Source: a virus (Duplodnaviria; Heunggongvirae; Uroviricota; Caudoviricetes). From it: a stretch of 44,188 nt of DNA. Positions within the stretch are counted from its first letter, which is position 1; each line of letters opens with the position of its first letter. Both the position numbers and the translations under genes were made by a program. This document shows positions 734 to 43,255 of this stretch, piece after piece. The notes beneath the pieces are model-generated. The model worked only from the letters and a program-made list of their open reading frames with translations. It was not told where the DNA came from and made no database searches. The stretch lies in the IMG/VR virus record IMGVR_UViG_2541047701_000003, one strand, 5' to 3'.

Positions 734-1810
734 TCAGAGCAGTAAGTACGTTTTTTCTCTCTCATCAAGATACATTTTTGTTGTCTTCTCCGATGTGTGG
801 CCAAGTAGACGTTGAGCAAATTCTTCCCCACATGTTTCTTTGTACAATCGTCCAGCCAGGCTTCTGATCTCGTGAAAAGTTGGTGGGTTTTCACTGAACT
901 GGATACCTGTTAATTTTCTGGCTGCGACAAATTTCTTTGTCAGGCCGTCCGGGTGAATGCTGCCGTCAGGGCTGTTTTTTCTAATCCCGGCACTGATTAG
1001 ATAATCCCCCCTACTTACCATGCGGCACTGTTCAACTACTGCACCAAGTCGTAAACCAGCGACAGGAAGGCTGAGTGACAGGGGGATAGCAATCATCATT
1101 CCTGTCTTAATTTGCCTGATGTGGAGACGATCATCATAAATCTCACTGAACCGCATATTTGTTATGTCTTCGCGACGTTGTCCTGTTACAAGGGCTAAGT
1201 CCATAGCTAATGGGAACCATGTCGGAAGTTGATCTGCTGCCTCCCTGATGCAGTTGTATGTCTTTAGTTTCAGCCGTTCTCTTGTAACTACTATTTTCGG
1301 TGCTCTTGTTGGCGTTACTGGATTTTGAGATATACGTCCTTCAACAATGGCCTCGCGGAACATATCAGATAACACAGAACGCATTGATCCTGCCATCGTG
1401 TTTTTCCCTCCTTCAATCCACAAATCAAGAAACTCGGCAATATGGCGAGTGGTTATTTCTGTCAGTAAAACCCCTCCTAATTTTTCTTTTATTGTCTCCA
1501 GTTGATTTACCCGAATTTTATAAGTATTTCTGGACACTTTTCTCCTTATAAGAATCGTTTTGTAACGTTCAATCCAGTCTGCCATAGTAAATGAGTCGAA
1601 CCCTTTTAGTTTTTCAATTAAGGCAGCAGGAGAGTAGTTTTTGTATATATAATGATTTGCTTCAATTGCCTGCGCTACTGCATCTCTTCTTGAAATTTTA
1701 CCTAGTGTAAATTCTTCTTTCGTCAGAGGGTTGCGCCAGTAATATGCTTTGTCCCTCCTTCGATATGTTAAGTTTTTAGGCAAATTGGGATCGTATTTTT
1801 TCCGCTGCAT
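734..1810 (-). CDS. int: Tyrosine integrase, lambda Int family
   Basis: 358 aa; alignable by eye to lambda Int along its length ([29 protein letters not shown]-terminal catalytic motifs); adjacent to attL. Confidence 0.85.
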
Positions 1811-7636: not shown

Positions 7637-7988
7637 AATTATCTCCATTTTTACAAATGAATTTTGTCGATGCGGTGCCTGGTGCCTCCAGGTGACGTTA
7701 ACCAGTTAACAATTAACGCCGGATAATCCACCCATAACACTGATGCTTTTAACTGTGCCGCGTGCGCTTAGCCGCATTCACCGCATCACAAAATTCACTT
7801 TAAAAAGGGGCGGCAGGGCAGCCACGGAGTAGAACTGATGCCGCCAAAGACTACACATAGCAATGTCGTTATTTACAACCGGAGGCGCACTCCCACCATT
7901 TAAATTTAACAGACAAGACCGACTCTTTATGAATACCGGAAATGCGCCTTCGTGTTGTGCGCCTGTCTTTTTACCACTTCAGGCTCGG

Positions 7989-15171: not shown

Positions 15172-15325
15172 AAACGGTTTGCGGGAAAAGGAGAGTTAAG
15201 TAGAATTGCTGCGGGTGCTTGAGGCTATCTGTCTCAGGCATGAACACCAAAAGGCAGATAGAGAAAAGCCCCAGTTAACATTACGCGTCCTGCAAGACGC
15301 TTAACATTAATCTGAGGCCCAATCT

Positions 15326-15538
15326 ATGTCTCACAAATGTAGGTTAGCCTCTTACGTGCCGAAAGGCAAGGAGAAGCAGGCTATGAAGCAGCAAAAGGCG
15401 ATGTTAATCGCCCTGATCGTCATCTGTTTAACCGTCATAGTGACGGCACTGGTAACGAGGAAAGACCTCTGCGAGGTACGAATCCGAACCGGCCAGACGG
15501 AGGTCGCTGTCTTCACAGCTTACGAACCTGAGGAGTAA
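15326..15538 (+). CDS. mok: Mok-like reading frame (N-terminal extension of hok)
   Basis: 70-aa ORF in frame with hok, as in chromosomal mok/hok loci. Confidence 0.45.
   Translation: MSHKCRLASYVPKGKEKQAMKQQKAMLIALIVICLTVIVTALVTRKDLCEVRIRTGQTEVAVFTAYEPEE
15383..15538 (+). CDS. hok: Hok/Gef-family type I toxin
   Basis: 51 aa MKQQKAMLIALIVICLTVIVTALVTRKDLCEVRIRTGQTEVAVFTAYEPEE, typical Hok sequence; 5'/3' fold-back complementarity in flanking RNA. Confidence 0.75.
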   Translation: MKQQKAMLIALIVICLTVIVTALVTRKDLCEVRIRTGQTEVAVFTAYEPEE

Positions 15539-17538: not shown

Positions 17539-17564
17539 CTCAATCTGTTATCCGGGGCTATATT
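17535..17564 (+). promoter_or_regulatory. Candidate late promoter pR'
   Basis: TTGACT (17535..17540) - 18 nt - TATATT (17559..17564) directly after Q stop. Confidence 0.4.
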
Positions 17565-17625
17565 CCTCACGCGCCAGCAAAATCTGGCGTCGGGATTGGC
17601 GTCCTGGATAGAGACCGCGACAGAT

Positions 17626-17648
17626 ACACGCCGCGAGCGTGTTTTTTA
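17626..17648 (+). terminator. Candidate tR' terminator
   Basis: ACACGC-cgcga-GCGTGT followed by TTTTTTATT about 60 nt downstream of the -10. Confidence 0.5.
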
Positions 17649-17808
17649 TTGTCGTATGCACGCGCACATCTGAATTATGGTGGGCTGTGTGGGGGCGGAG
17701 AGATCCGCGCCGGTCGGTTTCCCGGTTACGCCAACCCCGCACAGTTCACCACCAGACGATTGGCGTCGTCGGTGGTGAGTTATTAAGAAACCACCAGAGG
17801 GCGTCATT

Positions 17809-36039: not shown

Positions 36040-36387
36040 ATGAAACGATGGATATTTTCATTGCTGGCGTTAGTGTCTGTTGGTGTAAGTGCAAACACCA
36101 TAACGATGCAATGCGGCAACTTTCGTATGGATGCGATCCCTGACTCATTATTTAAAATCAATGGCGAAACAGTAACATCCCAAAAAGTAAAAATGTTGGG
36201 TAAAGACGGTACAGGCATGCAGATCAAAATGGAGCTGATGCCTGCCAAAGATGGCAACAATTATGGGTTCGAGTATATCCATCGACCGGGCACTAAAACG
36301 CGTTTCCTGAACGTCCAGTTGTTGCAGAACAGCATGGACGCGCCGAAAATTATCGGCTCCTTCCCGTGTAAAAAAGTGCCTGGTTGA
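36040..36387 (+). CDS. Secreted protein with signal peptide (moron)
   Basis: 115 aa; MKRWIFSLLALVSVGVSA signal peptide, two Cys; lower GC than neighbours. Confidence 0.5.
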   Translation: MKRWIFSLLALVSVGVSANTITMQCGNFRMDAIPDSLFKINGETVTSQKVKMLGKDGTGMQIKMELMPAKDGNNYGFEYIHRPGTKTRFLNVQLLQNSMDAPKIIGSFPCKKVPG

Positions 36388-36400
36388 AGGCAGGCACTTT
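36373..36400. terminator. Bidirectional hairpin terminator between convergent moron genes
   Basis: AAAGTGCCTG-gttgaagg-CAGGCACTTT with T-rich flanks on both strands. Confidence 0.45.
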
Positions 36401-36406
36401 CTTTAA

Positions 36407-36772
36407 TCATTCCTTTTTGATTTCGATTTCTTCTTTAGCCTCACTGAATAGTTTAAAAAGTTCTTCATCGGTGAGGTTGCTTGCTTCGATTTTGTAGCCG
36501 CCTTTTTTGATGATTATCTTCTTACTGTGTTTTGCTCTAATCCATGCGGCCACAACAGCAGCGACGCTATAACAAACATCTTTGTTTTGGATAAATTCAA
36601 AAATGTATCCGAGTATCACTGATGCGGGTGAGGATGCAGAAGGCGCTGAATCACCTACCCGCGCCCTTACACCCATTTTTCTGGCTTCAGCGGGGATGAT
36701 CTCCTCGATATAAGGGATCAACTCTTCCCCTACGGATTTTGAGAGGCGTACTTTGAAAACTGATTTAGTCAT
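36407..36772 (-). CDS. Hypothetical protein (moron, opposite strand inside tail operon)
   Basis: 121-aa ORF, Lys/Glu/Ile-rich, AT-rich codon usage. Confidence 0.5.
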   Translation of the reverse strand: MTKSVFKVRLSKSVGEELIPYIEEIIPAEARKMGVRARVGDSAPSASSPASVILGYIFEFIQNKDVCYSVAAVVAAWIRAKHSKKIIIKKGGYKIEASNLTDEELFKLFSEAKEEIEIKKE

Positions 36773-36953
36773 AACCTTTGGCGGCTCCTTCCGGAAAAGA
36801 ATTAATGCTATATGGTCACTGGCTGGAACTTTGTTGGCTTTGGTCTTTTATGGCGAGGCAAAAATCGTTCTTAAAAACTATTGCCATCAAGATGAGCCGA
36901 AAAAGGTGTAACACCAACACCTGATAATTTATATCCTGATATTTGATCAGTAA

Positions 36954-36976
36954 CCCGCCACCCGGCGGGTTTTTTG
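36954..36976 (+). terminator. Rho-independent terminator just upstream of baseplate genes
   Basis: CCCGCC-accc-GGCGGG followed by TTTTTTG. Confidence 0.45.
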
Positions 36977-36994
36977 CTTTCTGGAGCCTACAAA

Positions 36995-37747
36995 ATGGCA
37001 GTATCTGACCAGACCCGCAGCGGCGACCTTGCCGAAACATTCAAATCCGAGCGGGAAACCACAAAGAACCAGATCCGCGTCGCTTTGCCTGGCATCGTTC
37101 AGTCATTCGATCCTGACGCGGTGACGGCGGTTGTGCAGCCTGCTATTCGTTCGGTTGAAACCGACAACGACGGCAACCGCGTAACCAAAAATTACCCGCT
37201 GCTGGTGGATGTGCCGGTGGTATTTCCGCGCGGCGGCGGCTGCACGTTAACTTTCCCGGTAAAAGCCGGCGATGAATGCCTGGTGATTTTTGCCGATCGT
37301 TGTATTGATTTCTGGTGGCAGAACGGCGGGATACAGGAGCCTGTTGATGACAGAATGCATGATTTATCGGATGCGTTTTGTATTGTCGGTCCCCAGTCGC
37401 AGGCAAGGAAGATTAGCGGTATTAATACCAGTGCCACACAGTTGCGTAGTGATGACGGCAGCACCTATTTTGAGCTTAATCCTGATACCAGGAAAATTAA
37501 AATTGTCGCTCCGGGGGGCCTTGATGTGGTTGCCCCTCTGGCTGATTTTTCTGAGAAAGTAACCATTCATGGCCTGTTAACCTGGATGGGAGGCATGGTG
37601 GGGTCTGTTGTTTCTGGTGTGGCTTCAAAAATCACTGGTGCTGTTGAGTTTTTGGGTAGCGTGAAGGCTAACGGCAAGCCAATCGATGATACGCACACTC
37701 ATGGTGGTGTTCAGCGCGGTGGAAGCAATACCGACGGAGTAAACTGA
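36995..37747 (+). CDS. Baseplate central spike protein (gpV/Mu gp45-like)
   Basis: 251 aa from ATG with TGGAG SD; PLLVDVPVVFPRGGG...GDECLVIFADRCIDFWW pattern typical of phage baseplate V proteins. Confidence 0.55.
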   Translation: MAVSDQTRSGDLAETFKSERETTKNQIRVALPGIVQSFDPDAVTAVVQPAIRSVETDNDGNRVTKNYPLLVDVPVVFPRGGGCTLTFPVKAGDECLVIFADRCIDFWWQNGGIQEPVDDRMHDLSDAFCIVGPQSQARKISGINTSATQLRSDDGSTYFELNPDTRKIKIVAPGGLDVVAPLADFSEKVTIHGLLTWMGGMVGSVVSGVASKITGAVEFLGSVKANGKPIDDTHTHGGVQRGGSNTDGVN

Positions 37748-38100
37748 TGCGATACAGACGTGAAGACGCCGATGGCGATTACACCTTTGGCAGCGGTGAT
37801 GACACCTGGCTGATTAACTCGCCTGAGGCCGTAGCACAGGCTGTGAAAACGCGATTCGAATTGTGGTATGGGCAATGGTTTCTCGACACCACCGAAGGGA
37901 CTCCGTGGATCCAGTCCGTGCTCGGTAAGCAGAAGCCGGAAACCTACAACCTGGCGATCCGTAAGCGCATCCTCGAAACGCGGGGCGTTAAATCAATCCT
38001 CTCTTTCAATACGACAGTGGATACCACGACCCGACGTGTCATGTTTTCCGCTGAAATCGACACTCTTTATGGAATAACGACTGTTACATCGGAGGCGTAA
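37747..38100 (+). CDS. Putative baseplate protein
   Basis: 117 aa, ATGA-coupled to spike gene. Confidence 0.4.
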   Translation: MRYRREDADGDYTFGSGDDTWLINSPEAVAQAVKTRFELWYGQWFLDTTEGTPWIQSVLGKQKPETYNLAIRKRILETRGVKSILSFNTTVDTTTRRVMFSAEIDTLYGITTVTSEA

Positions 38101-39299
38101 TGGCTCTGAACCTTGATTCTCTCGGTTTATCTGCAAAGGTAACTGCGGAGGGGATCAGTGCGCCTGATTATCAGACGATACTCAGCACCCTGATTAGCTA
38201 TTTTCAGCAGATTTATGGCAGTGATGCCTACCTCGAACCGGACAGCAAAGACGGCCAGATGGTGGCTCTGATGGCGCTGGCGATTCATGATGCCAATAAT
38301 ATGGCGATAACTGTCTACAACTGTTTTTCACCGGCAACCGGCTATGGGGCTGCACTGACCAGTAACGTGAAAATAAATGGTATTTCACGTAAAGGCGCGA
38401 CGAACTCTACGGTTGATTTGCTTCTTACAGGAGCTGCCGGAACAACCATCATTAATGGCAGCGTGAAAGACAGTAATAATGTGATATGGCGTTTGCCTGC
38501 TTCAGTGGTGGTCGGCGTGGATGGTACAGTGATGGCGACCGCAACATGTTCCGTCAGTGGTGCAGTGGCGGCGCTGGCTGGAACTATCACTGAAATTAAT
38601 ACGCCAACCCGTGGCTGGGTTTCGGTAACTAATCCTGCTGTGGCTACTGTGGGCACTCCGGCAGAAACTGACGCGGAGTTACGTATCCGCCAGTCGCAAA
38701 GTGTTGCGTTGCCATCAATAACCCCATTTGAAGCACTGGATGGTGCTGTTTCTAATGTTACCGGTGTAACCCGCCACAAACTCTATGAAAACGATACTGG
38801 TTCGGAGGACGGTAACGGGTTACCGCCACACTCTGTTGCTGTAATTGTGGATGGCGGTGATGTGACGGATATTGCTCAGGCTATCAGAGGAAATAAAGGC
38901 CAGGGGACAGCCACTCACGGTACAACATCCGTTACAGTTCCGGATAAATACGGCAATCCCCATGTAATCAAATTCTCGCGTTCCAGTGATGTGCCTGTTT
39001 ATGCCCGGATCAAATTAAAAGTTTTTACGGGTTATACCTCACAGATAGGGCAGCAGATCCAGCAGGCTATTTCCGACTATATCAATAGTCTGATGATTGG
39101 TGATTCGGTCCTTTTAAGTCGCATTTACTCACCGGCGAATCTTGGCGTGGTGAGTGGCGGGAATGCACGCTATTACGATATTCAGGAACTGACGATTGGG
39201 AAATCCCCGGGGGCTTTGTCGTCATCAAACATTGATATCAGATACAACGAATCTGCGTCCTGTACCCCGGAAAATATCGTTATAACGGTGGAGTCATGA
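38100..39299 (+). CDS. Putative baseplate wedge protein (J-like)
   Basis: 399 aa, coupled, position typical. Confidence 0.45.
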   Translation: MALNLDSLGLSAKVTAEGISAPDYQTILSTLISYFQQIYGSDAYLEPDSKDGQMVALMALAIHDANNMAITVYNCFSPATGYGAALTSNVKINGISRKGATNSTVDLLLTGAAGTTIINGSVKDSNNVIWRLPASVVVGVDGTVMATATCSVSGAVAALAGTITEINTPTRGWVSVTNPAVATVGTPAETDAELRIRQSQSVALPSITPFEALDGAVSNVTGVTRHKLYENDTGSEDGNGLPPHSVAVIVDGGDVTDIAQAIRGNKGQGTATHGTTSVTVPDKYGNPHVIKFSRSSDVPVYARIKLKVFTGYTSQIGQQIQQAISDYINSLMIGDSVLLSRIYSPANLGVVSGGNARYYDIQELTIGKSPGALSSSNIDIRYNESASCTPENIVITVES

Positions 39300-39976
39300 G
39301 CAAATACACCGAACTGATCACGAACTACCACGCCACCAAACCTAAATTTCTTGCACATGTTGATCTGATGACCCGGCCGCTTATTGATGTTGCGGCTGCC
39401 ACCAGAGGGCTGATTACTGCATTTGATATTGACTCTGCGGTTGGTGTGCAACTTGACATTCTTGGATTGTGGATCGGACGTAGCCGTGTTGTCAGCCAGC
39501 CTATCTCAGGTGTCTATTTCAGCTGGGATACCGACGGGCTTGGATATGATCAGGGTGTATGGCAGGGGCCATACGATCCTGATTCCGGATACATGTACCT
39601 CAGCGATGAAACTTATCGTGTCATCCTTAAAGCGAAGATTGCGATTAATAACTGGGACGGACGGAATGATTCGCTTCCGGCAATTCTTGACGCGGCGACA
39701 GCAGGATCCGGACTGCGAATGCAGATAGTCGATAACCAGGACATGACGATATCGGTCTGGCTCTTTCCTGATACTGATATTTCAGATGTATCGCGTGAGT
39801 TAATTGCTGCAATTAAACAGGGATATCTCACAGTAAAAGCCGCCGGGGTTTGGGCGGGTGGCATTGAAACACCTTCGGTGGAAACTCCATCGGAAGGTTC
39901 AAAATTTTTTGGTTTTGATATGGATAACGAATTCATCAGTGGTTTTGATGTAGGGGCATGGGGAGTATTACTCTGA
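39296..39976 (+). CDS. Putative baseplate/tail fibre attachment protein
   Basis: 226 aa, coupled. Confidence 0.4.
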   Translation: MSKYTELITNYHATKPKFLAHVDLMTRPLIDVAAATRGLITAFDIDSAVGVQLDILGLWIGRSRVVSQPISGVYFSWDTDGLGYDQGVWQGPYDPDSGYMYLSDETYRVILKAKIAINNWDGRNDSLPAILDAATAGSGLRMQIVDNQDMTISVWLFPDTDISDVSRELIAAIKQGYLTVKAAGVWAGGIETPSVETPSEGSKFFGFDMDNEFISGFDVGAWGVLL

Positions 39977-42399
39977 TGGCGAAAAATGACTTTAAAGCGT
40001 TTGCAACTGATCGGAATGCCAATGTTATGTCGCAGGAGGAATGGGAAGCGTTGCCTGCGCTTTTATCCGGATTTACAGCAGGGAAAGCATCCAGTGCGCA
40101 GGTGAACAAAGCCATTCGACAGGCCAGCTTTATTGCTGCAGCTCTGGCCCAGTTTGTAAGTGACAAAACGCAACGGGATGTGCTTGATAATGGTGATCTG
40201 CCCGGTTTTGTTGAATTGCTTGGATCGGGGTTTGCTGTTGAATACCTGAGTCGCAAGAATCCGTTTGGTGATATCAAATCGGACGGCACGGTAGAACGCG
40301 CTCTTGAAAATCTGGGGTTACAGGATGTAAAAGCTGGTTCATTGAACAATCTGTACACTAACCATTCCCGTAGTGTCTTAATGGAATTGCCGTTATTATT
40401 CCCGGACTACGATACGGTGCTGGCTGCTCAGTCTGGTGCGGAATATATGTATCCACAGGGATTTGTGGTGACAGGAGAAAAAATCTATCTGAGTTATACC
40501 GTTGAGCCAAAGCAGACACGGAACGTTATAGTTCAGTACACAACATCCGGCGAATATGAGGGATATTATTATGTCGATAATGGAGGTCGTGGCGTTGTCA
40601 GCGAAGGCCTTGTGGTGACAACGGATTACGGTGGATTACGTTTGTTCATGTCAGGAGAAAATGGATTACTGAAACAGTTTTCGCTTGATGGGGCAATTTC
40701 TGGTTCAGTATTGCCGTTAATTGATGAACATGATGTCGGTGTTTACAACCAGTTCAGCTATCGTAAAAACCGCTGGGTGGTTGAACAGTCAGCGCCGGAA
40801 GTGGGAGGCCTGATCACCCGCACAGTATTTGCGGTGTATGATTTTCAGTTTCGTCGGACAGGGACATTCACATTACCGTTGCATGATTCCGGATATATCA
40901 CGGAAAGCACAGACAGCTATGCAAGACGCTTCACAAAACGTCAGGGAATTGCTGTGGGAGACGATTATATTGCCTGTTCTTATGGTGGCTATTTTAATAC
41001 CGGGGCATCAGCCGGATTTAACCAGTTTCAGGGGGTTAAGGTCTTTTCTCCGGATGGAGTAAAGCAGCAGGAATCCATTCTTCATCCCCAAAAAATGATA
41101 GATGTGCTTACCAGGCAGGGTTTTACACCTTCGCGCATTGAGAACGAAGGAATTTGTATTTCTGACGACGGCGGCAGTATATATTCGCTTTATATCTTTC
41201 TGGAGCGTGGGTTACCACAGGCTTATCAGAAAGGAATTGTTCTGATGAAAGAGTTCAGTACTGGCAGAGATGCTATTGATTTTCGTCAGGCAGCCTGGTT
41301 GTACACGGGGTTTGATGTGTCTCATGCCAGTATTGGAACATTTCCCCGTAGTGCCCAGGGGTTGGTAAACCCGGTGTTGGGGACGGTATTCACATCCCTG
41401 TCTGAAATTCTGGCATATATGCGTTCTGTGAGTCAGAAATGGTTTTGTCTGCATACAACCACGACACCGATTAAAGATCTGAGTGGAAATGACATTCCTG
41501 CTGACAATTATGTGTTCATCAAGAATGCTAATAACCAGACATTCTATATAACGCAGGAGTCAGCTGAAGGTGGAATAAAATATAAAGCTGTCACTACAGA
41601 CAGCGGAGAATATGGTTTTCAGCGACAAAGAGAGGCAATCTGGTCCAATGTTATCACCATCGCACAAAAGAGCGATGGTGAGGATCAGTTTAATCGTATT
41701 ATCGCTGCCTCGAAAAGTGGTTCAGGTAAAAATCAGGATAAAATACTGGTAGTTGACCAACAGGCATCAGAGGGGAATAACACGCTGGTAATTGGCGGTG
41801 GTTCATCTGTGTTCAGGTCAGCGACAGTGATTGATTTTGCAACGAATCAGGATGCAAATGCCACAGGAGGAGAAAAGAGATGGCGCATAGATTCATCAGG
41901 AAATCTCCGCCCTTATACAGATAATACGTATTCGATCGGTTATGCCTCATGGCGACCCGCACAGGTTTATTCAGCTACGGGAAGTATCAGTACATCAGAC
42001 CGGACTCATAAACAGGACGAAACAATTCTGTCGGATGCAGAAAAAAGGGTTGCCAGAAAGCTGCTCGGGTATATCTGTCGGTTCCGTTTCAGGGATGCAG
42101 TGTCCAGCAAAGGGAACGCAGCCAGATGGCATGTAGGAGTGATTGCTCAGGACGTACAGAAGGTCTTCTCTGAGGAAGGGCTGGACGCTTTTGATTACGG
42201 TATTTTGTGTCGTGATGAATATCCGGCGGAATATGAAGTGGTTTACGGGACTCGTATGGAGCTTGGTCCTGACGGACTCCTTACAATGGAAGAATACGAT
42301 ACCGGAGAGCGCAAGCTGGTCAGGGAGGCTGGTGAAATAATGTCTGTAAGGAATGATGAGCTGCATTATTTCATGCTGGCATCGCTGTCTGGCCAGTGA
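39958..42399 (+). CDS. Tail fibre/tailspike with C-terminal intramolecular chaperone (peptidase S74-like) domain; alternative start at 39976
   Basis: 813 aa; C-terminus ...DRTHKQDETILSDAEKRVARKLLGYICRFRFRDAVS...WHVGVIAQDV... resembles self-cleaving chaperone domains of endosialidase-type fibres. Confidence 0.7.
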   Translation: MGSITLMAKNDFKAFATDRNANVMSQEEWEALPALLSGFTAGKASSAQVNKAIRQASFIAAALAQFVSDKTQRDVLDNGDLPGFVELLGSGFAVEYLSRKNPFGDIKSDGTVERALENLGLQDVKAGSLNNLYTNHSRSVLMELPLLFPDYDTVLAAQSGAEYMYPQGFVVTGEKIYLSYTVEPKQTRNVIVQYTTSGEYEGYYYVDNGGRGVVSEGLVVTTDYGGLRLFMSGENGLLKQFSLDGAISGSVLPLIDEHDVGVYNQFSYRKNRWVVEQSAPEVGGLITRTVFAVYDFQFRRTGTFTLPLHDSGYITESTDSYARRFTKRQGIAVGDDYIACSYGGYFNTGASAGFNQFQGVKVFSPDGVKQQESILHPQKMIDVLTRQGFTPSRIENEGICISDDGGSIYSLYIFLERGLPQAYQKGIVLMKEFSTGRDAIDFRQAAWLYTGFDVSHASIGTFPRSAQGLVNPVLGTVFTSLSEILAYMRSVSQKWFCLHTTTTPIKDLSGNDIPADNYVFIKNANNQTFYITQESAEGGIKYKAVTTDSGEYGFQRQREAIWSNVITIAQKSDGEDQFNRIIAASKSGSGKNQDKILVVDQQASEGNNTLVIGGGSSVFRSATVIDFATNQDANATGGEKRWRIDSSGNLRPYTDNTYSIGYASWRPAQVYSATGSISTSDRTHKQDETILSDAEKRVARKLLGYICRFRFRDAVSSKGNAARWHVGVIAQDVQKVFSEEGLDAFDYGILCRDEYPAEYEVVYGTRMELGPDGLLTMEEYDTGERKLVREAGEIMSVRNDELHYFMLASLSGQ

Positions 42400-42438
42400 A
42401 TAATATTAATGTAAGGAGCGATATAAGCTCCTTACATC

Positions 42439-42618
42439 ATGCATTTTATGCTGCGATTATGCGTTCTCCTGTTGTTTGTTGCTGAGAGTGAAACACCGGA
42501 AACATACTGGTGGATTGAAATGTTCTGTGTGGCAGCGTATGAATATGTCGTGGTAGGGTGGATAAAAAATGCCCGTGATGATCCGGGCAACATAGCAGTA
42601 TGCATTTTTCTATTGTGA
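42439..42618 (+). CDS. Possible small secreted/membrane peptide
   Basis: 59-aa ORF MHFMLRLCVLLLFVAESE...; start sits in a hairpin containing AAGGAG; weak support. Confidence 0.2.
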   Translation: MHFMLRLCVLLLFVAESETPETYWWIEMFCVAAYEYVVVGWIKNARDDPGNIAVCIFLL

Positions 42619-42951
42619 ACTGATGCATTATACAAGTAATGCTGTTATTGAGGAAAGTTTAAAGAAGCGGCTCTTCTCCGCCTGTAAAGTTTGGTCATTA
42701 TTGCTTTATATATAAGTTCCACCAGTAGGCGATCATCTATGATGTTGGCGTATCGACTTTGTATAAGAAGTTTCCAGTCGGAGATAAATGAAACCGTAGC
42801 ACGTCGTATGCAAGAACGTGCCACGGCTGGCTGATGGACGTTCGATAGCGCGAGTTTGAATGAAAATCAGCCGGAGGTGATTTTACATAATTGTTGCGGA
42901 ATCATTCAATATAGGGATTGCTTATTTCTGCCTGGATTGGTCTGAAATAGT

Positions 42952-42980
42952 CCCGAAATTTTCTCTAAAAAACTCGAAAA
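42952..42980. promoter_or_regulatory. Candidate integrase arm-type sites (right arm)
   Basis: cccgaaatt and actcgaaaa, matching motifs next to attL. Confidence 0.3.
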
Positions 42981-43095
42981 AAATGGTAACTAATTGAATG
43001 CATTAATATGCAATGGTACGTGTTTGGGATTAAAAGATGAGCGTGATTTTGTTTAACACATTAATTTAAAAAGGGTTTCTTGTTTGTTGACGAAA

Positions 43096-43121
43096 ACAGG
43101 AATCGTGTTCGGTCTCTTTTT
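43096..43121. repeat. attR core (direct repeat, displaced copy of sdsR 3' end)
   Basis: acaggaatcgtgttcggtctcttttt matches 577..602 at 24 of 26 positions. Confidence 0.6.
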
Positions 43122-43255
43122 ATCTGTTAAAAGCCAGAAGCATTCCCTTCGCTGACTTTATAGTCAACCATAACACACACTCTACTGTCTGAGTCCAGCG
43201 TTTTTTAACATTCTTGTTAAGATTATGTGATCTTTAGCGCGGGAGGAAAATATTG

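Follow-up and report, generated by a model that had tools for sequence, protein, structure and literature searches.

The window, a stretch of 44,188 nucleotides (IMG/VR record IMGVR_UViG_2541047701_000003), contains towards its right end the last gene of a temperate E. coli prophage. This gene encodes a tail-fibre or receptor-binding protein and is followed by prophage DNA without annotated genes and then by the chromosome. The features are as follows (coordinates are those of the window, residues those of the complete frame):

39958..42399, plus strand: open reading frame of the tail-fibre / receptor-binding protein, last prophage gene (ORF list and PHROG matches)
39976..40320, plus strand: baseplate-attachment (anchor) domain, residues 7-121 (identity to related myophage fibres)
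40351..41313, plus strand: predicted five-bladed beta-propeller, residues ~132-452, presumed receptor-binding and possibly enzymatic (AF2, Foldseek)
41326..41622, plus strand: small alpha/beta domain, residues 457-555, in a 'tower/neck' position (AF2 models)
41623..41994, plus strand: presumed trimeric beta stalk / distal tip, residues 556-679 (similarity to the T5 pb1 tip)
41995..42396, plus strand: Peptidase_S74 intramolecular chaperone, residues 680-813, 134 aa (Pfam, PDB sequence matches and fold)
42409..42437, plus strand: hairpin with an 11-bp stem, 10 nt past the fibre stop, strong (dG -17.5 kcal/mol, z = -5.3)
42729..42791, plus strand: 3' remnant of a Gin/Pin-type DNA invertase, 20 codons, AIIYDVGVSTLYKKFPVGDK* (blastn to DNA invertase / Gin genes, translation)
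42400..43090, no strand: prophage-specific DNA without annotated gene, from the fibre to the right prophage end (cross-genome conservation)

The frame at 39958..42399, the position given by a previous sequence-only reading, is uninterrupted and encodes 813 aa. The true start codon is probably the ATG at 39976, which would shorten the protein to 807 aa; this ATG overlaps the upstream stop codon as TGATG and has a GGGGAG Shine-Dalgarno sequence 9 nt upstream. PHROG tail spike and tail fiber families match the frame with high significance (phrog_1171, E=6e-126; phrog_11303, E=7e-65). The PGAP annotation of the locus is a different one: residues 7-122 are given as an incomplete 'gp53-like' pseudogene and a separate CDS starts at Met142. 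The fibre gene of strain THO-003 is split by PGAP in the same way, and the frame is open there too, over 791 codons. Such a split is an expected artefact when a mosaic protein is annotated by homology, and PGAP mis-annotates mosaic fibres of this type as pseudogenes.

The split annotation in both strains, together with an invertase remnant that indicates a deletion in the region, could also be taken to mean that the locus is a decayed, non-functional chimera left over from a rearrangement of the fibre region. We consider such decay very improbable. The frame is continuous in both strains and is kept across the mosaic junction, and none of the family-invariant and catalytic residues (see below) has been lost. 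The 791-aa form stands for a cluster with 365 members, 58 records contain the distal module at an identity of at least 99%, and the remainder of the prophage also looks complete, from the integrase through to the baseplate. It may be that the prophage is cryptic and that the fibre is never expressed.

The N-terminal part of the fibre belongs to the phage's own lineage: over residues 1-121 it shares 96.7% identity with the fibres of three vB_EcoM phages, and the anchor domain is matched by tail fiber N-termini of phrog_11303/1396. For one phage, vB_EcoM-611R5, residues 1-115 of the fibre are 96.5% identical to the fibre studied here, and the two genomes share 96% nucleotide identity from position 36952 to 40319, where the similarity ends. 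Related temperate myophages have the anchor, in conserved form, on their side tail fibre. The junction, at residue ~121, is in frame. At the same position, 611R5 has a fibre gene, a Tfa gene, an inverted Tfa/fibre pair (forming an invertible cassette) and an invertase gene.

No separate tail-fibre assembly gene follows the fibre, in agreement with the sequence-only reading: between 42400 and pphA (43253) no ORF exceeds 67 aa and PGAP places no gene, the small ORFs downstream of the fibre have no significant PHROG match, and tblastn with the Tfa proteins of 611R5 detects no similarity within 42400-43252. The region does contain the 20-codon invertase remnant, which appears to be a relic of an invertible fibre/Tfa cassette that was displaced by the present fibre module. 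A weak minus-strand tblastn match to an invertase N-terminus (~42921-43043, E=0.009) was discarded, as its translation has no invertase motif.

The C-terminus of the fibre has a match to Pfam Peptidase_S74 (PF13884) at residues 680-742 that lies well above the curated cutoff (39.5 versus 22 bits, E=6.7e-10). It also matches, by sequence, the solved chaperone structures of T5 pb1 (4uw8, 7.6e-18), phi29 gp12 (3gud, 3.3e-16) and K1F endosialidase (3gw6, 1.8e-14), as well as 7y5s. The putative catalytic dyad, Ser680 and Lys685 (codons checked at 41995-41997 and 42010-42012), aligns with A(S1264)/K1269 of 4uw8 and A(S911)/K916 of 3gw6, the serine being mutated to alanine in both constructs, and S680 aligns with residue 1 of the cleaved phi29 fragment in 3gud. 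An AF2 model of residues 686-813 (pLDDT ~85) has the same three structures as its top Foldseek matches (3gw6, 1.3e-11; 4uw8, 1.4e-10; 3gud, 2.6e-8 with a TM-score of 0.76); the ICA domain of MyRF (7dc3) is also among the fold matches, at a lower rank. Sequence and predicted fold both indicate that this is a genuine S74 intramolecular chaperone, with autocleavage predicted, by analogy, between T679 and S680. The released fragment would have 134 residues, close to the ~140 residues of the sequence-only reading, whose self-cleaving fibre without assembly gene is upheld by the domain match, the three solved chaperones, the Ser/Lys dyad, the fold and synteny.

Some fibres keep non-cleaving C-terminal knobs, and the C-terminal domain might likewise stay on the mature fibre as a distal receptor-binding knob. 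This is very improbable: both the dyad and the motif ARWHVGVIAQ (HxGxxAQ-type) are shared with proteins that have been crystallised in cleaved and uncleaved forms, and the dyad is conserved across those members of the propeller family (below) that have an S74 domain (Ser in 39/41, Lys in 38/41).

Upstream of the chaperone, residues ~625-679 match the mature tip of T5 pb1 (4uw7, 2.1e-5; 5aq5, 4.4e-5), both structures being T5 pb1 without chaperone, and there is a weak match to PF12219 (End_tail_spike) at residues 643-679 that is below the cutoff (E=0.092). Residues 556-685 have low pLDDT in the monomer model, as is expected for an intertwined trimer. Between propeller and stalk there is a single confident alpha/beta domain (residues 457-555, pLDDT ~80-90 in both AF2 models), for which Foldseek returned no specific fold match; a match to phrog_22693 spans residues 140-554 and includes this domain.

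For the central part of the fibre, the sequence-only reading had proposed a beta-helix and a depolymerase-type architecture. Neither is supported: residues 132-452 are predicted to form a propeller, in a model of ~20 strands whose pLDDT is above 90 for the most part, and no beta-helix protein is among the top fold matches. The count of five blades and the placing of conserved residues in a 'central cavity' were deduced solely from strand order, and both structural models were predicted as monomers, the alignments behind them being shallow (13-14 sequences). The best Foldseek matches in the PDB are receptor-binding protein (RBP) platforms of Staphylococcus phages (9m7x, 7e-14; 6v8i, 2.6e-11; 5efv, 6.4e-11; 6iab, 2.2e-10), with modest TM-scores of 0.37-0.39 that are partly lowered by the inclusion of disordered tail residues; the fibre of Staphylococcus phage vB_SscM-1 matches the propeller fold with a TM-score of 0.72. 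At the sequence level, the propeller profile found nothing better than E=0.35 among all PDB sequences, and no phage RBP, so that homology to phi11 Gp45 is not established. No Pfam family matched the propeller at E<=1, either in the fibre or in 11 family members, and there was no match in NCBIfam.

A search for the propeller family returned ~365 clusters. The family occurs both in Staphylococcus Twortvirinae and in enterobacterial phages and prophages, with the propeller fused to many different phage anchors: T7-tail, P22 head-binding, TSP1/gp66 and tail-collar domains. In T7-like phages the homologues occupy the position of gp17, the sole RBP; the Kayfunavirus phages Milel and Bia have a propeller with 52% identity. 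The fibre proteins of the Staphylococcus Twortvirinae are detectable sequence homologues (22-32% identity), and family members without S74 have C-terminal extensions of the size of a tower (~150-270 aa). The distal module is present in ~57 complete genomes. In a different prophage it recurs, with 99.7% identity from nt 292 of the gene onwards, behind a StfP-type anchor; this version is an intact 791-aa ORF, is the last prophage gene and likewise has no Tfa. The same module circulates among T7-like, N4-like and Mu-like phages. The GDPD label carried by Staphylococcus homologues gives no functional clue to the propeller: gp113 of vB_SscM-1 has no Pfam phosphodiesterase match. We found nothing useful in the literature on the coliphage homologues U8, ZCEC02/08, ST1UNAM, PBM-2 and 611R5. 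A link to the O25b-specific Kayfunavirus LM33_P1 was dropped: the fibres of LM33_P1 and ES17 are of an unrelated, pectinesterase / K5-lyase-like type (PMC7885116).

In GenBank, the homologues of ZCEC02, ZCEC08, U8, PBM-2 and ST1UNAM are labelled endo-N-acetylneuraminidase, and the succession of propeller, stalk and S74 domain matches that of K1F endoNF; the weak End_tail_spike match points in the same direction. That the fibre is a K1-specific endosialidase is nevertheless extremely improbable: neither the endosialidase propeller family nor BNR repeats match the fibre or any of 11 family members, even at E<=1, the only K1F entry matched in the PDB is the chaperone construct 3gw6, over query residues 612-804, the ~20 strands of the model give five blades rather than six plus an inserted barrel, and endosialidase structures are missing from the top fold matches. 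The labels are best explained by transfer from the shared S74/stalk region, and GenBank homologues are mislabelled as endosialidases or as phosphodiesterases. The only propeller in a Kayfunavirus tailspike that we found in the literature is that of the K1 endosialidase case, which is not applicable here.

Residues P166, E216, R288, K327, Q329, E395 and E397 are conserved across the propeller family. All but P166 show a conservation of 87-99% in a set of 165 cluster representatives. Pairwise identity within this set does not exceed 50%, and homologues from E. coli, Rahnella, Bacillus and Staphylococcus phages are part of it. In the model, the conserved polar residues sit where the presumed innermost strand begins, in successive blades. 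The central cavity of the Staphylococcus RBP platforms (phi11, 80alpha, P68, NF5) has been proposed as a GlcNAc site (PMC4901313; PMC6795507). The proposal that the central part is the receptor-binding determinant is supported, indirectly, by its likeness to known receptor-binding platforms and by being the part that was horizontally swapped; capsule or O-antigen is a plausible putative target.

Binding sites for differing glycans would be expected to vary more than this polar constellation does, and the place of the constellation corresponds to that of the active site in five-bladed GH43/GH32 enzymes and in glutaminyl cyclase. The propeller could for this reason be an enzyme, a tailspike depolymerase or glycan-modifying protein that cleaves or deacylates O-antigen or capsule, with S74-assisted assembly unchanged. 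GH43 enzymes are among the lower Foldseek matches, the homologue is the only RBP in Kayfunavirus, phages with typically enzymatic tailspikes (PMC11990801), and PHROG names the family 'tail spike protein'. We regard an enzymatic role as a real possibility that is nonetheless rather unlikely: no enzymatic domain or known catalytic family was recognised in the fibre by Pfam, NCBIfam or PDB sequence searches, the closest folds are wall teichoic acid-binding platforms that are not enzymes, and the conserved buried charges could be structural or bind ions. Slightly more speculative still is the idea that the propeller represents an undescribed family, in which E216/R288/K327-x-Q329/E395-x-E397 would form the catalytic centre of a novel class of enzymes that depolymerise or modify surface glycans, carried on an S74 stalk.

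Together, the data make it likely that the protein serves a temperate, contractile-tailed E. coli prophage as its host-recognition fibre and that it is a mosaic, with an anchor joined to a foreign module of propeller, stalk and self-cleaving S74 domain. Residues 7-121 would be the lineage's own baseplate attachment, and everything from ~122 onwards a foreign, self-contained module that probably took the place of the original fibre tip, of the gene for the Tfa chaperone and of the invertible cassette that sets the host range. In the order propeller (132-452), alpha/beta domain (457-555), trimeric beta stalk (556-679) and S74 chaperone (680-813), the central cavity of the propeller would most likely bind a glycan of the host surface. 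By analogy to K1F endosialidase, T5 pb1 and phi29 gp12, three chaperone domains would trimerise first and template the stalk upstream; the Ser680-Lys685 dyad would then cut at T679|S680 and release the 134-residue fragment, and residues 7-679 would remain on the baseplate as a mature, kinetically stable trimer.

The chaperones of K1F (3gw6), T5 pb1 (4uw8) and phi29 gp12 (3gud) resemble that of the fibre in sequence and predicted fold and also in layout: like other C-terminal intramolecular chaperone domains (CIMCD), it is C-terminal and follows a (here presumed) beta stalk, has the Ser-x4-Lys dyad and the ARWHxGxIAQ motif and comes without a separate chaperone gene. The cargo differs: K1F has a sialidase propeller, T5 a fibre shaft and phi29 a beta-helix, where a five-bladed propeller is predicted here, and cleavage is only predicted here. 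The Staphylococcus RBPs (phi11 Gp45, 5efv; 80alpha, 6v8i; P68 gp17, 6iab; NF5, 9m7x) are of a stem-platform-tower type and share with the fibre, as modelled, an anchor, a five-bladed propeller of ~300 residues with four-stranded blades that starts at ~140, and further domains C-terminal to it. No sequence relationship to the Gp45 and gp17 chains of these structures could be detected, their tower is two-lobed where the fibre would have a stalk and a cleavable S74 chaperone, and the host here is Gram-negative E. coli, which, unlike the hosts of the Staphylococcus RBPs, has no wall teichoic acid.

With the Tfa-dependent fibres of the 611R5 type (Mu G segment / P1 C segment / e14 Pin), the prophage shares the order of baseplate genes, the anchor and the remnant of an invertase; in comparison to 611R5, it lacks the fibre tip and its alternative, the two Tfa genes and most of the invertase. 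As a single self-chaperoning module replaces the cassette, the host range would be fixed and not switchable. The beta-helix (pectate-lyase fold) tailspikes of P22, HK620, K5 lyase and O16-specific BASEL phages are likewise modular, with exchangeable anchors and a glycan-directed centre, and occur in the same phage groups (Kayfunavirus, N4-like phages and siphoviruses), whereas the fibre has a predicted propeller, no right-handed beta-helix and no recognised enzymatic signature.

The overall layout of the fibre is an ordinary case of a known design, except for the five-bladed propeller as the presumed receptor-binding part, and it leaves the current understanding of S74 chaperones and of tail-fibre modularity unchanged. 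Its value is as a clean natural example of prophage retargeting: one in-frame recombination at residue ~121 appears to have put a self-contained receptor-binding module with its own chaperone in place of a Tfa-dependent tip that an invertase could switch. The propeller family could serve host-range prediction or phage engineering if its ligand were identified.

The hairpin at 42409..42437 is terminator-like and poor in its U-tract. The right boundary of the prophage was set from conservation across genomes: positions 692-853 of the query are present in 5426/5426 genomes, the remainder only in the 4 genomes that have this prophage, and the core chromosome resumes at ~43091, followed by the chromosomal gene pphA, which begins at 43253. 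A search for att-site direct repeats of at least 14 nt flanking the prophage gave none that were convincing. The prophage is integrated at the ryeA/ryeB sRNA locus, adjoining pphA.

The fibre ORF was confirmed at 39958..42399 (+ strand), with 813 uninterrupted codons; residue numbers throughout refer to this 813-residue ORF from 39958. Its true start is probably the ATG at 39976, which shares bases with the stop codon of the DUF2612 baseplate gene before it (TGATG) and is preceded at 9 nt by a Shine-Dalgarno sequence (GGGGAG); PGAP and the PHROG profile also start here. PHROG places the protein among tail spikes (phrog_1171, 6e-126). PGAP treats the ORF not as one gene but as a pseudogene at the N-terminal end ('gp53-like' or 'StfP', C-terminus missing) and a shorter, separate CDS. 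This split occurs in two prophage backgrounds with continuous ORFs in both (813 and 791 codons), and we regard it as an annotation artefact of mosaicism. The fibre ORFs split by PGAP are:

Window, 39976-42399
Comparison record L001, 6019-8442
Comparison record L005, 4776-7151

The sequence-only reading had proposed a self-cleaving chaperone at the C-terminus, and formal searches bear this out: residues 680-742 align to the entire length of the Pfam model PF13884 (Peptidase_S74, "chaperone of endosialidase") and score 39.5 bits (curated Pfam cutoff: 22 bits). Residues 600-813 and, separately, the full-length protein were searched against the sequences of all PDB chains. Residues 600-813 matched the T5 L-shaped fibre pb1 with chaperone (4uw8, 7.6e-18), the released phi29 gp12 chaperone (3gud, 3.3e-16), the phage fibre 7y5s (2.6e-15), the K1F endosialidase chaperone construct (3gw6, 1.8e-14) and two tailspikes. 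4uw8 and 3gw6 were crystallised as non-cleaving mutants in which Ala stands in for the nucleophilic Ser; S680 aligns with this Ala, and also with the first residue of the phi29 fragment, which is released naturally. The conserved Lys of the solved chaperones aligns with K685, and the motif ARWHVGVIAQ is in common: dyad position and motif are as in the T5 pb1, K1F and phi29 proteins of the S74 family. At the codon level (GSIST/SDRTHK), Ser680 lies at 41995-41997 and Lys685 at 42010-42012. Based on this alignment and the S74 matches, the mature chain is predicted to end at T679 and to release a fragment of 134 residues; the earlier estimate of roughly 140 was accurate. In an AF2 model of residues 457-813, pLDDT is ~85 over 686-813, and the best PDB folds for the chaperone are 3gw6, 4uw8 and 3gud (TM 0.76 on target), with the eukaryotic MyRF ICA lower. 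By analogy with these proteins, the fibre would cleave itself and trimerise.

The central part had been expected to form a beta-helix, which did not hold: the AF2 model of residues 125-640 (13 sequences, mean pLDDT 77.6) and Foldseek indicate a five-bladed propeller instead, and a beta-helix depolymerase was rejected because of this predicted fold. Residues ~132-452 are modelled confidently (pLDDT mostly >90) as all-beta; their 20 strands recur in a regular pattern that predicts five four-stranded blades, the last of them completed by the N-terminal strand. Behind the propeller come a small alpha/beta domain (457-555) and then a stretch of low confidence, which a trimeric stalk with intertwined chains would be expected to give in a monomer model. 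In Foldseek searches of the PDB, receptor-binding proteins of Staphylococcus phages take the first places (NF5 9m7x, 7e-14; 80alpha 6v8i; phi11 Gp45 5efv, 6e-11; P68 gp17 6iab), above generic propellers and GH43 enzymes. TM values to these solved proteins are modest, ~0.38; the query length used to normalise them includes about 100 disordered residues. The best match among predicted viral structures is the fibre of Staphylococcus phage vB_SscM-1 (4.7e-35, TM 0.72). According to the model, the propeller has its five-bladed fold in common with the "platform" of phi11 Gp45 and P68 gp17, which carries a proposed binding site for teichoic-acid GlcNAc in phi11 (PMC4901313) and in P68 (PMC6795507). 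Given the modest TM, and as a propeller-only profile had no match among PDB sequences, the link to Gp45 lies in fold and architecture rather than in demonstrated homology.

The propeller has no Pfam, NCBIfam or PDB-sequence match, and yet it belongs to a sizeable family: an exhaustive search of its profile against 1.84 billion cluster representatives found 365 proteins at E<=1e-3 and 220 at E<=1e-30. The domain is matched from end to end in almost every case; its place in the protein varies, as does protein length (about 330-1400 aa). Of the 165 members retrieved, 41 end in S74, with ~350 residues behind the propeller as in the window protein, and these mostly keep the Ser (39/41) and the Lys (38/41); 100 have a tower-sized extension of ~150-270 residues without S74, and 14 stop at the propeller. 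N-terminal anchors of the homologues are of T7 tail-fibre, P22 head-binding, TSP1/gp66 and tail-collar type. In the T7-like phages ZCEC02 and Kayfunavirus Milel, the homologue at the gp17 position is the sole receptor-binding protein, and no chaperone gene follows. Only 51 of 50,697 phage records contain the propeller: 30 from Staphylococcus, one from Mammaliicoccus (31 together) and 20 enterobacterial.

Conservation across the 165 members is 86-99% at P166, E216, R288, K327, Q329, E395, E397 and at several glycines. From the strand order in the model we infer that the polar residues may start the presumed innermost strands of successive blades, ringing one mouth of the central channel. That they are conserved across hosts whose surface glycans are unrelated is the main argument that the propeller may act as a catalyst and not just as a lectin; they could equally well be structural or bind ions.

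In GenBank, coliphage homologues are labelled "endo-N-acetylneuraminidase" (for example ZCEC02, L002 2251-5106), most likely by transfer from the common S74/stalk region. Scans of the window protein and of the propeller regions from 11 family members gave no Pfam sialidase match. An endosialidase was rejected, as neither the protein nor these 11 relatives have a sialidase-propeller or BNR signal. Endosialidases share the propeller-stalk-chaperone layout but have six blades where five are predicted here, and similarity to K1F is limited to the chaperone construct. Staphylococcus homologues are labelled 'glycerophosphoryl diester phosphodiesterase' (for example vB_SscM-1 gp113, L007 1163-3985); Pfam finds no phosphodiesterase in gp113 and the label thus gives no clue to the function of the propeller.

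The absence of an assembly gene behind the fibre was likewise upheld: ~690 bp follow without an ORF >67 aa, a PGAP gene or a significant PHROG match, and sequence common to all 5426 complete E. coli genomes restarts at ~43091. The features of this region are:

42400-43090, ~690 bp of prophage-specific DNA with no annotated gene
42409-42437, strong 11-bp hairpin 10 nt after the fibre stop (dG -17.5 kcal/mol, z -5.3 vs shuffles)
42729-42791, + strand, 3' remnant of a Gin/Pin-type DNA invertase, 20 codons (AIIYDVGVSTLYKKFPVGDK, then stop)

The hairpin has only a weak U-tract and is likely the end of the late operon transcript. Parts of the region have ~82% identity to DNA without annotation that lies close to the tail-fibre regions in HK97, HK106, phi80 and Stx phages; its positions 400-691 match an Actinobacillus phage record at 92% identity, again in a part that carries no annotation.

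The related temperate myophage vB_EcoM-611R5 has the same baseplate genes with identical spacing, and 96% nucleotide identity over 36952-40319 that ends abruptly at fibre residue ~121. There, a 264-aa fibre is followed by the assembly chaperone gene Tfa, an inverted Tfa with a fibre fragment and a DNA invertase: an invertible host-range cassette of the Mu/P1/e14 type. The window has one self-chaperoning module at the place where vB_EcoM-611R5 has Tfa genes and an invertible switch; tblastn of the window with the vB_EcoM-611R5 Tfa proteins gave no match, and the invertase remnant is a relic of such a cassette. This is most simply explained if a recombination, in frame at residue ~121, put the module in place of the tip, the two Tfa genes and the switch. 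The module, 99.7% identical from gene nt 292 (residue ~98), also occurs in strain THO-003 and many other genomes, where a different, Mu-like prophage beside zinT has it joined to a StfP-type anchor. There it forms an intact 791-aa ORF that is the last prophage gene and lacks Tfa; this form represents a cluster of 365 member sequences.

Domain make-up, dyad, mosaic junction and loss of Tfa are shown by the analysis; for the mechanism, we propose that the C-terminal chaperone domains bring three chains together and would template the upstream trimeric stalk (556-679). Ser680, activated by Lys685, would then cut the T679-S680 bond and the chaperone would leave. The mature trimer would sit on the baseplate via residues 7-121 and present three propellers that may bind, and possibly process, a host surface glycan. 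Residues ~625-679 are similar to the mature T5 pb1 tip; as the new C-terminus after cleavage, they might add a second contact. Self-cleaving S74 chaperones, modular exchange of receptor-binding parts and propeller-stalk-chaperone layouts (endosialidases) are already well known. Of modest interest are the uncharacterised propeller family common to phages of Gram-positive and Gram-negative hosts, the clean footprint of a displaced Tfa/invertase cassette and the systematic mis-annotation of such ORFs and their homologues.

The window is a piece of E. coli chromosome with a complete-looking prophage, and the fibre gene is 100% identical across its whole length in E. coli FDAARGOS_1289. The integration site is an sRNA locus, with the integrase gene immediately beside it:

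462-606, both strands, SraC/RyeA - SdsR/RyeB bidirectional sRNA locus (Rfam, 180 and 118 bits)
734..1810, - strand, integrase, adjoining this locus
2168-2346, 7808-7859, 15213-15388 and 17558-17756, regulatory RNAs (RalA, DicF, sok, isrK, C4; Rfam)

Head, tail and baseplate genes follow the integrase on the + strand, and the right end of the prophage abuts pphA, which with yebW forms the chromosomal right end of the window. RalA (antitoxin of RalR), DicF, sok, isrK and a C4 antisense RNA with a1/b1 targets in the prophage all score above the Rfam gathering scores. The baseplate operon also differs from vB_EcoM-611R5 by an insert of low GC (36378-36952, ~0.43). It has a small + strand ORF that ends at 36387 and whose product resembles a signal peptide at its N-terminus (MKRWIFSLLALVSVGVSA). 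A second ORF, of 121 aa, lies on the other strand (36407..36772). Neither matches Pfam, and the insert looks like a moron or cargo cassette.
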